Source: Eledone cirrhosa (lineage: Eukaryota). From it: a stretch of 64,000 bases of DNA. The stretch's first letter is position 1; each line of letters begins with the position of its first letter. Below are positions 46,089 through 57,389 of the stretch, piece by piece. The notes under the pieces are model-generated. The model worked only from the letters and a program-made list of their open reading frames with translations, did no database searches and was not told where the DNA came from. The stretch covers positions 93,868,001-93,932,000 of the forward strand of contig OZ024742.1 in NCBI GenBank assembly GCA_964016885.1. The letters run 5' to 3'. Both the position numbers and the translations under genes were made by a program.

Positions 46089-46238
46089 TACATGGAACTC
46101 CTTTAACCATCTTTTGATCTTATATTATGTATACTCCAGTCCTACAAACTGTAGAGTGCTTCTTATCCGATATCTGCATTGCTTTATTGTACTACAATAA
46201 AACTCACCTCCTACATTATATATATATATATATATATA

Positions 46239-46551
46239 ATAAAGAAAACGAAAAATCAGTGATGCATCTGGACTTAGCTTATTTCGTTTTACAAATGTTT
46301 CGCCGGCATGTAGCTCGAGTCATGGTCCTTGTATGGATCTGGCTGATTCTACTTCTGCGGGTTCTTTCAGACAGGGACCATGACTCGAGCTACATGCCGA
46401 CGAAACATTTGTAACACGAAATAAACTAAGTCCAGATGCATCACTGATTTTTCGTTTTCTTTATAATATCTACACACTACTCTGATGAATATCAAGTGCT
46501 AATTTTGGCATACCGCCTATGGAAGAACCATACCTACCACTATACACAACT
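46239..46551 (+). mobile_element. Fold-back element with 94-bp arms and unpaired extension
   Basis: 46239-46332 pairs with 46371-46464; extension to 46551; (TA)n on both sides; arms contain cGAAAcatttgTA, like a hammerhead 3' half. Confidence 0.75.
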
Positions 46552-47864: not shown

Positions 47865-48812
47865 CCTAGGATTAAAAATTACGATAGCCACAAATCTCAC
47901 TAATGTAACTTCCTAGATGTTAATATATATCTACAGGCAATCACGTATAGTCCATTCCACAAACCCAGTGAGAAACTTTGGTACATCCATAAGGACTCTA
48001 GCCAACCCCTATAGTTTTTAAAAACCTCATTAACAATATTAATAAGAGGGTTTCCAACGTCTCCTCCAGCAAAGCCATCTTTGATAGGGCGGCACCCTAC
48101 TATAATTTAGCGCTGAAGAACAGCGGCTTCTCTGAAAGTATCACGTACCTACATCTAATAAGAAAAAATGTAGACATATAGATGTCATATGGTTCGCACC
48201 ACCTTTCTCACTTAATGTGAAAACAAATGTAGGCAAACATGTTTTAGACCTCATAGATCTTCATTTCCCTGTTGACCATAAAAACCGAAAGATATTTAAT
48301 TGCCATATAGTAAATATAGGATACTCTTGCACCAACAATGTAAAAACCTATACCACCGGCAAACAATAGCCCTCCACCATGTAGAAGACCTGAAACATGT
48401 TCACTAGACCAACAGTGCAGCACTCCAGCAGTGACATACCAAGCAATGGTTACCTCCACCAAGCAGAACCAACAAACTGAAGTCTGGACCTCTGTTGGTA
48501 TATCCGAGAGCTGGTTTAAAAACCGATTCCTGGATCATGAAACAACATTCAGATATCCCGATAAAAAACATACCACCTAGCTTGCAAACCTTGTATGGGG
48601 CCTTAAGAACATTGGCACACACTTTTCCATCAAATGGCATATTTTGGAAAGTAAACGGGTTGAAATTTTGTCGGCTTTGTAATTCCGAAAAATGGTGGAT
48701 ACTCTCACAATTAGCTTCGGATAAGCAATACCTCAACACACGGCTCGATTGCTTTAGCAGTTGTCCCCACGCGAAGAAAGATATCTTGGATAAATGGCTT
48801 AGGCCTGACTAA
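47865..48812 (+). pseudogene. Degraded PLE RT thumb and GIY-YIG, related to the 43356-45412 protein
   Basis: Manual translation FLDV, YSPFHKP, NNINKRVSNVSSSKAIFDRAAPYYNLALKNSGF, CRLCNSEK align by eye with the intact ORF; many frameshifts. Confidence 0.8.
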
Positions 48813-49249: not shown

Positions 49250-50137
49250 GGTGTGGACGATATTTGTTCGCAATTTTCAACTGCTAATTTTATGCAAATT
49301 TTTTTTACTTCCATTGTCACTCTTGTCTTCATAAAAACAGTGACTATATTTCCATTATTTATTTTCAGAATAATTTATTATGAATAAATTTGAACCTCCA
49401 AATTTGTGGAAGAGACACGGAGTTCTTCTTGGAATCCGCGCCGGGAGGACAAATAAGGCTCAGAAGATCAGCTCCCAGAACAACAGATGGCTCGCTGTCT
49501 CATCCAAAGACGTGCCCAGAGTCATGCAGACAAAGTTTCCAGAAATAACATTGGTCTTAGGTGTCGTCAGCAGTCAAGGTGACTTCATGCCACCTCACGT
49601 CTTCCCTGAGGGCCTCAAGCTGAACACCGATGGCTACATCCGCGTTCTGAGCGAGGTAGTAAAGTCCTGGATCGACCTGGTAGCTGCAGGTAGGCCGTAC
49701 GCGTGGCAGCAAGACTCAGCGCCCTGCCATACCAGCCGAAAGACCCAAGCCTGGCAGTCAAGAACTTCGTCGGCCACACTTCACCTGACATCTGGCCCCT
49801 CAGCTCACCTGACTGCAACCCTCTCGACTTCTTTGTGTGGGGCGCAGTAGAACGAGACACCACCAGATCTAGCTGCAATACGAAAGACGATCTGAAGGCC
49901 AGGATCACAAGTGCCTTTAGGGGCATAAGTCGGGGGACAGTGACGAAGGCCTGTAGCCGGTTCCGAGGCCGCCATGAGGCCGTCATCAAAGCCAATGGCG
50001 GGTTTATCGAGTGAGATCGAAAGAACAAGTCATGAAGACAAACTAACACAAAGTGATAAATATATCTTCAAAAATAAAACTACTGCGTTACTTTTTCCTA
50101 GACAGTAATCTTGCAAACAAATATCGTCCGCACCCTG
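49247..50137 (+). mobile_element. Internally deleted Tc1/mariner transposon, DD37D (maT) type
   Basis: TIRs CAGGGTG(T/C)GGACGATATTTGTT with TA on both sides; WQQDSAPCH and SSPDCNPLDF motifs give 37 aa between the aspartates after repairing one 1-nt deletion. Confidence 0.88.
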
Positions 50138-50368
50138 TATACACACACATACACCCCCCCCCCACACACACGCACACACACATATATATATATATAGAGA
50201 GAGAGATAGATAAATATACACGGGTGTGTATGATTGTGTATAGAAGATTATATTAATAAGAGGAATTCCAACTTTGTCTGATTTACTCGTTTTATTTACA
50301 ATCCTTTAACATTTATAATGGTATTATAATGAAATAGTATGATAGAATATTAAATGTTAAGTGTTAAT

Positions 50369-50407
50369 TGAACAAGTACTTTCATGCTTTCGCAATCTTC
50401 AGGTTCA
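50369..50407 (-). ncRNA. Minimal type I hammerhead ribozyme, apparently intact
   Basis: tgaac-CTGAAGA-ttgcgaaagcat-GAAA-gtac-TT-gttca; predicted cleavage between 50374 and 50373. Confidence 0.85.
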
Positions 50408-50713
50408 TAATGTGTGGTGACAGTCAAGTTTGCAATTTTCAACTGTAATGAAATGGGTACATTTTCTACCTTATATACAGAAAAGTGGCTCCAGAATGCT
50501 AAATCTTGCAAACTGTATTTCGACCAATCGGTGTGTAGTTTCACTGAATTACTAAAGCTGATTGGTTTAGGCGTCACGGTTGGTTGAGCATGTCTAACGA
50601 CCACTAATTGATCCTATCCAAAGCATCAATTGTTTTGCTATTTTTAGAAATGATGAAAATAGCATTTTCTCGTAATCATCACCATCAACATCACTTTTAT
50701 TATTATTATTATT

Positions 50714-50749
<36 letters not shown>

Positions 50750-50811
50750 AGTGGTCGTAGTCGACATGGTCGTAGTCATAGTCATAGTAGAAGTAATACC
50801 CCTAAGCATTA

Positions 50812-53139
50812 TTATTGTTCATTTAGCTTGGCTTTGAATTTATCAATAACATTCTTTTCTTTGATTTTTCTCTTGATTTCACTTGGGCTGTATAATTTGT
50901 AGAATGGGAATATTATAAATATTCCCTGACCACATGTTGCTAGATGGTTACTTAGGGGTATCTGACGGACATTTGGGTCTCTGATTTGCTGATGGTGTAC
51001 CCGTGCACGTTCCGATAGTGCATTTCCAGTTTGACCGACATATAGTTCTTCACAATTCGGGCATTTAATGCAGTAAATTAGATTTCTGCTTTTGCAGTTC
51101 ATATTTGCATTTGGGAATATTTTTCCAGTTTTTGTTTTCATATATTGACCGGCGTGTATGGATTGACATGTGCCGCATCGACTATCATTGCATTTAGATA
51201 CAGTGAATGATTGGTGTTTGTTGTTAAGGTCAAACTTTGCTTTTGTTAGTAATTGCTTCAAATTTTTTGGCTGTCTTTTACTAAGAGTCAAAGATCGATC
51301 TGTGATTAAGCCTTTTAATTCATTACTTTGACCAATGATCGGTAGGTTTGCTTTGGCAGTGTTGAAGATATTCTGGTGACATGGGTTGTGTGTCATTATA
51401 AATGGTATGACCAGTTCTTGGTTTCTTCTTCCTTGGGTTATCCTAAGTTGTTGTATAGGTATTTTTATAGCCCGCTGTATGCCATTTTCTATAAGTAGAG
51501 ATGGGTATTTTTGTTTTAGCAAAAATTCTCTTAGTTCTGTTAGGCGTTTGTACCTGGTATTCGTATCTTCTACAATGGTACAAATTCTTCTGGCTAGGCA
51601 GTATGGGATGTTGCGTTTTGTATGAGGTGGATGGCAGGACTTAAAATTCAGATATTGATGGGTGTCTGTGTGTTTATAATATATATCTGTGGTAATGGTG
51701 GTGTCGTTTTTGATTATCATTATATCTAGGAATGGTAATTTGGTCCTACTCATCTCTTTTGTGAATTGAAGAGATGGGTGTAGGTTATTCAGGAGGATAT
51801 TGAACTCATCCAGAGTATCTAGAGATTCTGTCCAGATGATGAAACAGTCGTCAAGGTATCTCTTCCAAGATTTTTCAATGTACTTTCTAATGTCAGTACT
51901 ATATGTTTCCTCTATTTCTTGGTAGAGTTGTTGTTCTAAGTATCCCATTACAGAGTTCGCGTAAACGGGAGCAAACTTCGTTCCCATCGCTGTGCCTCTA
52001 ATTTGGATGTAATTCTTTCCATTGAAGAAGAAAGTGTTGTTTTCCAGAATAAGTTTAACTGCGTCTAATATAAATGGCGCTGTGAATCTGATGGGAATCA
52101 CTTCTCTATGTTTCTCCACCCAGTATTTAACCGCCTTTATTCCTAAATCATGTGTAATGTTGGTGTAAAGGCTTACCACATCAAAACTAAGTAGAAGTGA
52201 ATTCGTTTCCGTGGTTTTGGGAAGATGGGACAGGAAGTCGATATCATCCCGGATGAAACTGGGTATGTGAATACATAGTGGTTTCAAAATAATGTCAACA
52301 AAATTGCTTAGACGGTGGGTGGGGCATGTTGGACCAGCTATAATAGGTCTAAGTTTTAAGTCTTTTGGGTGTAGTAATTTAATTTACTCACTGTTTTGTT
52401 CTCTTACTGCCAGTTGTATTTCTTTTAACTTATGAACTTTCGGTAGGCCATACAGGTTGCTGGGTTTTGGCTTAAAATTGGTGATGTAGTCTCTTTCCTT
52501 ATCAGTAAGTGAGTTGTGGTATTTTTAAGCCAGGTTGTTGATCTTCTTCATGATGTTGTGGTCTATATTTGACGGTATTTCATGATAGAATGTTGTGTCT
52601 TTCAGTTGTTCCTCAACCAAATCCTTGTAGTATTCAGTATCCATTATAACAACTGCACCCCCATTATCTGCTTGTTTAATTATTATTGTTTTATCATTTT
52701 GTATACGTTTAAGTGCAGACATTTCTGATTTGTTAATGTTTGGCCTAACATTAGTATTACGTCTAAGAGGAAATTTAGACAGGATGTCAATGTATTGGTC
52801 GAGATAGATATTTCTTCCTTTTGGCGGAGTGAAATTTGATTTATTCTTTACTAGTGATTCATCACTCTCATTACTTTTATCAGCGAAGAATTCTACAAGA
52901 CGTAATTTTCGACAGAATTCTTGGGTATCCTCCGTCAGTTCTTGGTGGTTGAGGGCTGGAGTCGGTGTGAATTTCGGTCCTTTTGACAGAATTTGCATTT
53001 CATCATTGTCAAGATCTCTTTTGGATAAATTAAATATTTTAGGATCTACGTGTACAGTTGTTTTGGGTATGTCTCCTCCTGGAGTTTTTCTTTTTCCGGT
53101 TTTTGTTGTCCTGACGTTAAAAAATGGATTTTTCTCTGT
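50812..53139 (-). pseudogene. PLE ORF2: RT - GIY-YIG, single frame with two premature TAA stops (52525, 52384)
   Basis: IFNLS..LSKGPKFTP, IKQADNGG, YGLPKVHK, LRPII, FDVVSLYTNI, GTAMG, YLDD, CxxxRCxxC, NLIYCIKC...YVGQT. Confidence 0.92.
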
Positions 53140-54314
53140 TCAGGATTTATATTCCTGTTGGTGTTCGCTTGATGAACTTTTGGTCGTGATATTATATTTG
53201 GTTTCATTATGTATTTTGTCCTATTTTTGGTATTATGTATATTATTTTTCCATTTCTTGTTAGCATTATTTTTAACAATCTAGGGAAATGCCCTAGGTTT
53301 GCTTTCAGATTTAGATCGTTTTTTCGCCCAGTTTCTTGTGGGTAATCTCTGTTGAGATCTTGAGAGTGATCTGGTTATACTACGTTTTATTTCCACATTC
53401 CTTGTTGGTAGTCTCTGTTGAGATCTTGAGAATGATCTCCTGGTTTTACTACTTCTCATGGTCTGGTCAAAGGAATATCTATCGTGTTTGTGCTTTTTGT
53501 TCATGTTGTGTGCGATAGGGTGTTTTTGTAGAAAAAGCGAAGAGTTATTACCGTAGTTCTTCTTTGATTCAAGGTAAGGTGAGTGTTTGTGTTGGCACGT
53601 GTTCTGGCGTATGTTGTGTTGGTGAGATTGTCCACTTTTAATGCTTTTTCTCAGGGTTCCAGAGTCTTTACCGTAATTTGCAGCATATTCGTCGAGAAAT
53701 AATTGTTTCTGCTGCCATACCTTTCTTGATTTGTTTTCTTCTTTTGAGATATCTCTGATCCATCGTTCTCGTAGTTTTTCAGCTATAATACCAGTCGTTA
53801 GCTTTGAAATTTCAACTTCAATTTGGTCATCGATAGCTTCATATTTGGCTTTGTAGCGGGATTGTTTACATTGAGAAATGGAGATGTCGGTCCTGAATTT
53901 TGTCAATGTAAGTTCCCATCGGAGTTTTGTTTCTTCTTCTGGTTCTCCTGCAATTTCTGTAATTAGGTATGTACTAGGGAGTATGGGTGCCGTTAGAGAG
54001 AGGCATTTCAAATGTGTTTCGACATATTTTTCGCATTTGTATGCTTTCCAGAAGTTTTGTTTTCTTATGTTAAGAAATTTTTTCCATGTCTTCCACATTT
54101 CTTTTTATATTCGATGTGTTTTGTTTTCCAAATTTCTTTCGTTTAGTTCTGACATCCAAGGGGGTTGTGGTAGGCTTTCTCTTGTATCTTTGATAACTGT
54201 TGGTATAATTTCAGCTAAATTCTTAATTTCAGAGTTTATATGTTCAGTTATAAGTTTTCCGTCTGTAGATTGCTTTTCTATTTCCTTTAAGATAGAGGAT
54301 TGTGTGTCAATCAT
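53046..54314 (-). pseudogene. PLE upstream ORF1 (helical N-part, basic S/R-rich C-part), 5'-truncated, two premature stops
   Basis: Track ORFs 54105-54314 and 53280-54098 share a frame that stays open to TAG at 53046; duplicated RS(F/L)SRSQQRLPTRN. Confidence 0.7.
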
Positions 54315-54441
54315 CGTGATTATTGTTCAATTAACACTTAACATTTAATATTCTATCATACTATTTCATTATAATACCATTATAAATTTTAAAGGATTGT
54401 AAATAAAACGAGTAAATCAGACAAAGTTGGAATTCCTCTTA

Positions 54442-54473
<32 letters not shown>

Positions 54474-54477
<4 letters not shown>

Positions 54478-55383: not shown

Positions 55384-55463
55384 CAAAGTTGTCATGTTCC
55401 TCTTCCTCATCATAAGATTAACATGTGTTGGCTGAAGGTGGAGGGGTTTTATGCTTACATGAA

Positions 55464-55500
<37 letters not shown>

Positions 55501-55506
<6 letters not shown>

Positions 55507-57389
55507 ACGGGGTCATACCAAATGACTGGCGTAGCAGCATCATCATTAACTGCTGCAAGGGTAAAGAAGATGCACTAGATAGAGGAAACTATAGAGGCAT
55601 TAAATTACTTGACCAGGTCATGAAGGTCACAGAAAAAGTTATAGCGCAACTAATCAGGGAGCAAATTGATCTAGACGAAATGCAGTTTGGGTTTGTGTCA
55701 GGTAAAAGTACCACAGACGCCCTTTTCCTTCTACGACAACTACAGGAGAGGTACCTGGCTAAAAGTAAACCCCTATACTTAGCTTTTGTTGACTTGGAGA
55801 AAGCATTTGACAGAGTTCCCCGTGCCATTATCTGGGGAGCCCTTAGAAAACTAGGGTTTGAAGAATGGCTTGTGAGAGCTATACAAGCCATGTATAAAGA
55901 AAGAGTCAGAATTAACAACGAATATAGTGAAGAATTTAACGTAAAAGTTGGTGTTCATCAGGGCTCTGTCCTTAGCCCCCTCCTATTTATTATTGCCCTT
56001 CAGGCTATAACAGAGGAGTTCAAGACCGGCTGCCCATGGGAACTTCTCTATGCATATGATCTAACGCTCATAGCTGAATTGATGGCTGAACTAGAGAAGA
56101 AATTCCAAACATGGAAGCATGGCCTAAAATAAAAAAGGCCTTAAAGTTAACTTGTCTAAGACTAAAGTTCTAGTATGTAGAAAGGAAAATAAGGCACTGT
56201 TCTCCCCTGGGAAATGGCCATGCTCAGTGTGTAGGAAAGGAGTAGGCAGACATTCCATTTTATGTCCCAAATGCAAAGTATGGGTACATAAAAGATGTAG
56301 TGGGTCACAGGTAAGCTATCTAAGAACGTAGATTTTATTTGTGGCCAATGCTCAGGTGCAATAAGTAGCAAGCACCCATAGGACACTAGCTCCTTCTATT
56401 GCCCAGATGACTCTATAGAAATAGTGGACACCTTCCATTACCTGGGTGACAAAATCAGCAGTGGTGGAGGGTGCTCAGAAAGTACAGTAGCCAGAGTCAA
56501 AACGGGATGGAAAAAGTTCAGAGAGCTTATACCACTATTGGCCGCTAAAGGTTTCTCTCTAAAAATGAAAGGCAGACTGTATGATTCCTGCATACGAACA
56601 GCTATGTTACATGGCAGTGAGACATGGGCATTGTGTGCAGAGGATCTGCGCAGACTGGAGAGGGACAAAGCACACATTCTCCGCTGGATGTGTAATACAT
56701 GAACAGCAAAGCATAAATGAACTAAGTGAGAAATTAGGTATAAGAGGGATCAAATGCTGTTTACTCGAGAGAAGACTACATTGGTATGGTCACGTGATGC
56801 GCATGAAAGATGACAGCTGTATAAAAAAGTGCAGGCGATCAAAATTGACGGAAGTTACGGAGTAGGTAGATCCAGAAAAACCTGGGGCGCTTTGATAAAT
56901 TCCGACCTTAAACACTTACACCTTTCTAAGACAATGTCACTGGACGGAGATCTTTGGCGCTACACAGTAATACAGAAAACCCGCCTTGCCTAAGTACAAA
57001 GCGAAACCTACAGTCAGTAGGCACCTTTTAATCAAATATACACCCCCCTTCCACTACTCCCAACTACCCCCCCCCCCATCAACACCACCCCTTTCTCTGT
57101 AAAGTTATGTTGGTACCACAACATCCAGTCCTAAATAAATGAGGTCGTGTAGGTGTCACAACAAAAAAAACACTCAGTCCACGCTGTAATGTGGCCGTGT
57201 AGGTAACACGGTAAAAACCTCCCAGTCCACTCTGTAAACGTGGTTGGTGTTAGGAAGGGCATCCAGCCGTAGAAAACCCGCCAGACAGTCCTATACGAGC
57301 GAGACGACCAATCTTGCCTCAAGTGGGACAACTCCTGTCTAAACCCATACTAGTGTTGAAGATAGATGTTAAATGATGATGATGATGAT
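55501..57389 (+). mobile_element. 5'-truncated, frameshifted RTE LINE
   Basis: RT and 3' UTR highly similar to 38120-40028; YADD mutated to YAYD; (GAT)n tail. Confidence 0.95.

Follow-up and report, generated by a model that had tools for sequence, protein, structure and literature searches.

Structure of the Penelope-like element

The DNA considered here, a stretch of 64,000 nucleotides (nt) of Eledone cirrhosa referred to as the window (GCA_964016885.1, contig OZ024742.1, positions 93,868,001-93,932,000 of the forward strand), contains on its minus strand what is, judging from its sequence, a broken Penelope-like element (PLE), a retrotransposon inserted here in two-armed form (Table 1). 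The pseudo-long terminal repeat (pseudo-LTR) at the 3' end of its main arm holds a predicted hammerhead ribozyme, and comparison with the relatives of this copy indicates that a small share of the family's insertions probably stems from RNA cut by this ribozyme. Positions in the element are counted along its sense strand (the minus strand of the window), with position 0 being the first base past the predicted cut (window 50373), and other copies are named by locus labels (e.g., L246). All evidence comes from comparison of genomic DNA within the family and from predicted folds.

Table 1. Parts of the Penelope-like insertion, in window positions (ORF, open reading frame; RT, reverse transcriptase; MFE, minimum free energy)
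Feature	Positions	Strand	Remarks
Main arm, 5'-truncated Penelope-like element	50215..54322	-	About 80 nt missing from the start of the ORF; 3' pseudo-LTR with intact ribozyme
34-nt tail, +125..+158	50215..50248	-	On the main (left) arm only
Segment 0..+124, downstream of the predicted cut	50249..50373	-	Mirrored by the inverted arm
Predicted type I hammerhead	50369..50407	-	Sequence and MFE fold
Putative promoter TATATAAG and likely transcription start	50446..50477	-	Function putative
ORF remnant: RT, CX4CX2C linker, C-terminal GIY-YIG endonuclease	50812..52383	-	Pfam and motifs
Broken N-terminal part of the ORF	52384..54322	-	In-frame stops and a frame change
Junction of arm and body	54321..54327	.	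4-nt microhomology at 54324-54327; altered bases at 54323 and 54321
Inverted tail-less arm, -2/0..+124	54323..54449	+	Without ribozyme core
(TA)n flank, right side	54450..54474	.

The main arm has a median identity of 97% to other copies (89 long alignments), and its left flank (50140-50214) is a microsatellite like the right one. In the ORF remnant, Pfam RVT_1 is matched with an E-value of 1.9e-6 (28.1 bits, just below the 29.6 cut-off) and is followed C-terminally by GIY-YIG (E 6.1e-6), an order within a single ORF that is a feature of endonuclease-bearing PLEs and that the window copy retains in broken form; a PDB search returned nothing relevant. The linker between the two domains, CNDSRCGTC, fits the CX2-5CxxC pattern of the Neptune clade, as the TA flanks around element copies fit the microsatellite target of that clade, and it points to Neptune or Nematis, the latter sharing the cysteine linker with the former (PMC8557442). 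In other copies, the 3' end of the element is fixed at +124 or +158, and among 60 arms the tail is present in 31 and absent from 29, in agreement with the one-sided tail of 30-40 bp of such elements. A preliminary description had placed the end of the element at 50253, which is too short for the left arm, where the tail continues to 50215. Pseudo-LTR tandems (L269, L273 and L278) show the order pseudo-LTR, tail, spacer, ATG. A SINE-like piece of ~180 nt is inserted in copies L005, L008, L014, L018 and L023 of the element, often with short duplications.

The predicted hammerhead

Read in the sense direction, the predicted ribozyme consists of stem I UGAAC, CUGAAGA, stem II, GAAA, GUAC, UU, the cut and GUUCA. 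Stem I pairs 50407-50403 with 50373-50369 (5 bp), CUGAAGA lies at 50402-50396, stem II at 50394-50385 (3 bp with a GAAA loop), GAAA at 50383-50380, the palindromic GUAC at 50379-50376 and UU at 50375-50374, which places the predicted cut at 50374/50373. The core of a type I PLE hammerhead, i.e., CUGANGA, GAAA, UH and a helix I that closes the cut, is found in sequence and fold, the MFE fold having stems I and II formed in the predicted hammerhead register. GUAC provides the palindromic loop 3 expected for dimer formation, and helix III pairing is absent from the predicted dimer fold. Across 78 arms, variation amounts to 2.3% over -35..+4 versus 5.5% over +20..+60, and to 1.98% at the 11 core positions. 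In all, this is a plausible, non-canonical hammerhead.

The inverted arm of the window copy

The inverted repeat pairs 50249-50375 with 54323-54449 over 127 nt at 99% identity, with a sole mismatch at 50310/54388. The right arm lacks the ribozyme core, its homology beginning at -2 (54323), which bears out the preliminary description in that the inverted arm mirrors the 3' segment, stops within 2 nt of the predicted cut and excludes the core. The exact distance of 2 nt is less firm than was claimed, since the arm boundary can only be placed to -2..+3 because 54324-54327 match both arm and body; 54323 fits the uncut ribozyme only, 54321 agrees with neither of them, and upstream of 54322 the body of other full-length copies reads TCAACAC TTATCACG. 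A G/T difference at +63 between the arms is no evidence for two templates, as it is recurrent and discordant in three other insertions.

By itself, the junction in the window is ordinary Penelope architecture. Other junctions of its class, in which a short terminal arm stands head-to-head with a long body, were drawn from loci L002-L030, L061-L146 and L267-L295 (12 rows, one locus twice), and these 11 distinct junctions span -107 to +83, with only two in -23..+25, which makes the class a weak test of a preference for the cut.

Arm boundaries across the family

An unbiased sample with regard to the boundary was obtained with a 23-mer near the 3' end that has 7163 exact copies, the first 100 by position being taken. 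The start lies at -80..-61 in 60 of these 100 arms (mode -73), at -86 or still farther upstream in 18, at -5..+6 in eight (four of them at -2..+1) and elsewhere in 14. The arms that start around -73 retain the whole ribozyme, and because this is the main boundary, uncut RNA is the usual template. The putative promoter TATATAAG starts at 50477 (-104), 31 nt upstream of 50446 (-73), and -73 is likely the transcription start. A tabulation of boundaries across the family, which the preliminary description had proposed as a check for a peak at the cut, does yield such a peak as a minor one, the main boundary lying upstream of the whole ribozyme.

The minor peak was analyzed with a pattern for arms that break in -23..+25. 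It gave 372 matches, of which the 100 listed were examined and correspond to 74 insertions, 15 arms being dropped as internal indels. Junctions are enriched at the predicted cut at the family level: 11 of 32 insertions without fold-back lie at -2..+1 versus 2.6 expected (p 2.7e-5; scan of any 4-nt window, p 0.001; 100 of 372 arms), and eight of 28 do so after merging three shared joints, two shared chimeras and one duplicate (p 0.0014). With a 16-mer (0..+15), 86 of 7441 copies were found to have no T at -1; 26 of the 48 rows examined of these 86 are, by eye, true junctions at exactly 0, and the remainder are substitutions and one deletion. Extrapolation gives ~47 arms (0.6%) joined at exactly 0, excluding joints that have T at -1 by chance.

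A further 31 of the 74 insertions have an inverted copy joined nearby. These fold-back joints cluster around a quasi-palindrome at 0..+10 (GTT-CAATT-AAC), with recurring hairpin joints and modes at +2 (10) and +4 (5), in a histogram biased by the arm-selection pattern, which drops some fold-back joints in a position-dependent manner. That the palindromes are one clonal miniature inverted-repeat transposable element (MITE) was rejected, and because private variants occur in both arms they are independent events. With their peak at +2, around the quasi-palindrome, they do not count as clean evidence for cleavage. In a deletion search (100 of 108 matches), ~16 rows by eye break right after -1 versus ~28 spread over -17..-2, about half having microhomology, which is weak support for the cut. 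Recurrent deletions from -1 to +37/+39 were also seen, in a pattern search (463 matches) dominated by internal indels. A joint of +47 followed by 0 (48-nt duplication, 1-nt homology) is identical at L191, L198 and L249.

Joints at the predicted cut outside fold-back

Several insertions have ends at position 0 in arrangements of other kinds. L390 reads [+158..0][0..+124] without filler, so that both arms end at 0, as they do in L391 (with a 4-nt filler between them) and in L262; fold-back cannot produce these three insertions. Five ORF pieces (L157, L165, L169, L176 and L255) adjoin 0 in the same direction, with a homology of 0-1 nt at the joint, and in L176 the joint repeats in tandem at 845 nt, as would be given by a circle or by a repeated end-to-end jump. 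Long cut templates seem to be used too, because two long copies meet head-to-head at the predicted cut in L085 (G000:C1 ~21872000-21880700), a palindrome of ~8.6 kb, and because L161, also long, starts at 0. In L392 (G000:C27:16992800-16999700), position 0 is the start of both arms, and each is joined there to one and the same foreign sequence. This sequence holds an 83-nt tandem repeat (~3 copies in one arm and 11 in the other), and no hammerhead 3' end was found in it by eye.

Chimeras with a second hammerhead family

In L246 (G000:C2:377418000-377424100), a nearly full element carries 1003 foreign nt between -1 and 0 with nothing lost (insert at L246:4643-5645). The insert starts with UGGAA, which pairs with UUCCA before its core, and ends with CUGAUGA, a long stem II region, GAAA, CAAUUG and UU; on these motifs, it is a hammerhead opened at its own predicted cut, and it comprises one exact unit. 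The native junction of its two ends was recovered by pattern search (20 matches) and is the predicted hammerhead cut of a second family, which is tandem and non-coding, with a unit of ~1.0 kb and a branched stem II region of ~90 nt in its predicted hammerhead. Tandems of this family are present at L327, L332, L334 and L335, and its ordinary insertions have their end at unit position 195 rather than at the cut. Among the second-family loci (L326-L337), the bases that directly follow the predicted cut are missing from L328 (first 21) and L330 (first 10).

A general search for motifs of the form GAAA-N5-8-UH joined to 0 produced 25 matches, four of which are joints between a second-family unit and 0, at three loci (L246, L248 and L383); by eye, the remaining matches are small indel variants, besides four in an unrelated repeat. 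A third ribozyme joined to 0 (L371, L372, L386 and one locus on C23) was rejected as an unrelated repeat with a 13-nt chance match in the three examined, the candidate on C23 being discarded on the shared motif only.

L383 consists of (TA)n, one whole second-family unit and then 0..+158. Its unit is 91.5% identical to that of L246 and 96.7% to native L332, and the unit of L248 is 98.1% identical to native L334 and 96.6% to that of L246. The join of unit to 0 arose at least two times, because the L383 unit is nearer to native L332 than to that of L246. In L246, L248 and L383 the joins are precise, without filler or loss, as expected from an RtcB-type ligase, the UU before the cut being common to both partners and giving a 2-nt overlap. 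The joint between foreign sequence and 0 is identical in both arms of L246, L248 and L392, which means that the template already had either the joint itself or a fixed acceptor end. Such cut-to-cut hybrids would be hard to obtain without catalysis at both sites.

A probable minor template route from self-cleaved RNA

Taken together, these boundaries make it probable that the family mostly copies RNA from a likely start at -73 and that the few percent of arms beginning at the cut likely derive from self-cleaved RNA, which would be a minor template route. In the proposed mechanism, both ends of a nicked TA repeat would prime reverse transcription, one at each RT start site, and the RT would run to the 5' end of the RNA, usually at -73 and sometimes at the 5'-OH end left by the ribozyme at 0. 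Hammerhead products carry 2',3'-cyclic phosphate and 5'-OH ends. The 5'-OH end at 0 would sometimes be joined to the 3' end of another RNA, most simply by an RtcB-type ligase and otherwise by an end-to-end jump of the RT. Re-joining of cut RNA to other RNAs by ligation has about an even chance of being correct; it is the simplest reading because the same joint is present in both arms. The same even odds apply to the broader proposal that hammerhead products of unrelated mobile RNAs are ligated cut-to-cut in the germ line and that the Penelope machinery writes the hybrids into DNA.

For the window copy, the preliminary description had read the arm as a copy of a self-cleaved RNA. At the level of the family, that reading gains from the enrichment of junctions at the predicted cut and from the exact ribozyme-to-ribozyme joins; for this particular insertion, that the arm itself is a cleavage footprint is only slightly favored. 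The long arm passes through an uncut ribozyme, so the short arm would then be a copy of a second RNA or of the cut 5' pseudo-LTR within a tandem transcript.

A number of observations weigh against cleavage as the source of these ends. With regard to the ribozyme, the 10.1-11.1 pair is U-U in both the element and the second hammerhead family, in place of the G10.1-C11.1 pair that is highly conserved in PLE hammerheads (PMC4209133), and Rfam gave no hammerhead match at E<=5 in the window stretch or at E<=1 in L246/L248, the only matches in these searches being low-complexity microRNA (miRNA) ones. The junction in the window is ambiguous owing to its 4-nt AACA microhomology, and none of the 11 other distinct junctions of its class lies at the cut; likewise, none of the nine arms lies at -2..+1 in the rule-based class with a joint to a distant inverted part. 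The cut-site peak is small (4 of 100 unbiased arms), its any-window scan after merging shared joints gives a p of only 0.045, the modes of the fold-back palindromes differ from 0, and non-fold-back joints at -2/-1 (six) outnumber those at 0 (three), which T-rich flanks can explain and which blurs the site. The start at -73 is itself read from arm boundaries and a promoter-like motif, and there is no cap-G signal at it because the preceding base is mostly C (C 7, G 3, A 2; n=12). Finally, the same joint in both arms would also result from two RT jumps to one acceptor 3' end, ligation and jumping being indistinguishable here.

Of the alternatives to self-cleavage, one attributes the boundary near 0 to the local quasi-palindrome at 0..+10, on which cDNA ends would fold back or anneal with no ribozyme cut. 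Fold-back probably does shape the +2/+4 palindromes, given their number, modes and recurring hairpin joints, and the window junction uses the AACA microhomology; as an account of the whole boundary it is nevertheless quite improbable, as it leaves unexplained why TA repeats and other flanks are joined at exactly 0, why five ORF joints have almost no homology, and how insertions with both arms at 0 and the cut-to-cut insert arose. There is similarly little likelihood that catalysis is unneeded and that RT stalling at stem I, a minor transcription start or a host nuclease gives the 5' end at 0. Stem I does cover 0..+4, catalysis is left in doubt by the non-canonical U-U pair and by the weak activity that such motifs show in vitro (PMC4209133), and deletions beginning right after -1 often have microhomology (by eye). 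However, a stalled RT should halt at +5, on the 3' side of the stem, and stalling yields no 3' end at -1, no TATA-like motif is found in the sequence ~30 nt before 0 for a minor start, and for L246 four ends would have to coincide exactly with two predicted scissile bonds, which belong to unrelated families. A last proposal is that at the chimeric loci a retrozyme was inserted as DNA into a Penelope copy, or that these loci were misassembled, and that what remains of the peak is due to chance. It draws on there being three such loci only and on four public contig sets in which no piece aligned on L246 spanned its joins, an outcome that says little for a repeat. This proposal is very improbable, as insertions of the second family itself terminate at unit position 195, the three units are distinct (91.5-96.6%) and cluster with separate native subfamilies, and L246 and L248 both have the joint in each of their arms.

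Relation to known systems

The architecture found here is already known. Neptune/Nematis-type endonuclease-bearing PLEs leave an inverted 5'-truncated copy and a one-sided tail of 30-40 bp (Craig et al., 2021; PMC8557442), and the family resembles them in its RT and C-terminal GIY-YIG domains, cysteine linker, hammerhead in the pseudo-LTR, inverted arm, 34-nt tail on one arm and microsatellite target. The mapping of arm boundaries against the cut and the transcription start is a difference from that account in its available text, which calls the function of the hammerhead in these elements unclear. For the Poseidon element of Anolis, two internal RT start sites bounding the tail have been described in vitro (Frangieh et al., 2024; PMC11167929); the 3' ends at +124 and +158 match them, so the tail would be defined by RT start sites here too. 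Both systems share uncut RNA as the dominant template and a hammerhead upstream of the RT start sites, and for Poseidon no reads or RNA ends were found at the hammerhead cut.

For the hammerheads in metazoan PLE pseudo-LTRs, cleavage and ligation to circles has been proposed (Cervera and De la Peña, 2014; PMC4209133), a model that a review also presents as a proposal (PMC6765202). The ribozyme described here is like them in its type I topology, 5-bp helix I, palindromic loop 3 and predicted activity as a dimer, and differs in its helix II of 3 bp and in U-U instead of G-C at 10.1-11.1. That cut sites can shape genomic 5' junctions is known for the R2 retrotransposon with its HDV-like self-cleaving ribozyme (Eickbush et al., 2013; PMC3774820), in which the cut is the normal 5' end of the template, whereas in this family it would be a minor side route next to a main end at the likely transcription start. 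In U6/LINE-1 chimeras, RtcB joins a 2',3'-cyclic phosphate end to the 5'-OH end of a retroelement RNA before retrotransposition (Moldovan et al., 2019; PMC6789731). A similar join followed by copying into DNA may have occurred here, with the difference that each partner is the predicted product of a ribozyme, the two ribozymes belonging to unrelated families, and that L246 has an entire unit between the cut halves. Non-LTR retrozymes of animals have units of 170-400 nt (Cervera and De la Peña, 2020; PMC7229834; Li et al., bioRxiv 10.64898/2026.07.22.740005); the captured unit resembles them in its tandem arrangement, lack of coding sequence and predicted type I hammerhead, and differs in its length of 1.0 kb and its branched ~90-nt stem II region.

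In the literature searched, to which most subscription papers and supplements (e.g., Fig. S2 of PMC11167929, on genomic coverage) did not belong, no report was found of genomic cut-site peaks for Penelope hammerheads or of hybrids between hammerhead families, and the putative cut-to-cut capture of a second ribozyme RNA is without found precedent. In vivo evidence for cleavage by PLE hammerheads is stated to be absent (PMC4209133), and whether the weak Penelope hammerheads of animals cut in vivo, and for what purpose, is an open question (PMC4209133, PMC8557442) to which this family offers a graded and indirect answer based on DNA: cleavage likely occurs, yet as a side route, most insertions copying uncut RNA from the likely start. 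The cut-to-cut hybrids name exact RNAs and bonds for testing, and suggest how retrozymes could arise from Penelope elements and exchange parts with them. If the proposal holds, ribozyme cuts would be recombination points between retroelement families, and cuts that close circles from truncated Penelope RNA, as in the 845-nt repeat of L176, would lead directly from an autonomous element to a new retrozyme.

Other features of the window

A 23-nt match (91%) to the 3' end of the element is found in the same orientation at 48036-48058, and is perhaps the end of a related family; no hammerhead was found by eye in the 440 nt upstream of it. The left flank is adjoined by a transposase remnant with CAGGGTG-type ends (49253-50140), which we take to be mariner/Tc1-like, and fragments of a non-LTR reverse transcriptase, presumably RTE-like, are located on the plus strand at 55422-56865. 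A 105-nt inverted repeat (93%) with a 32-nt spacer, located inside TA repeats at 46231-46472, may be the fold-back stub of another family.

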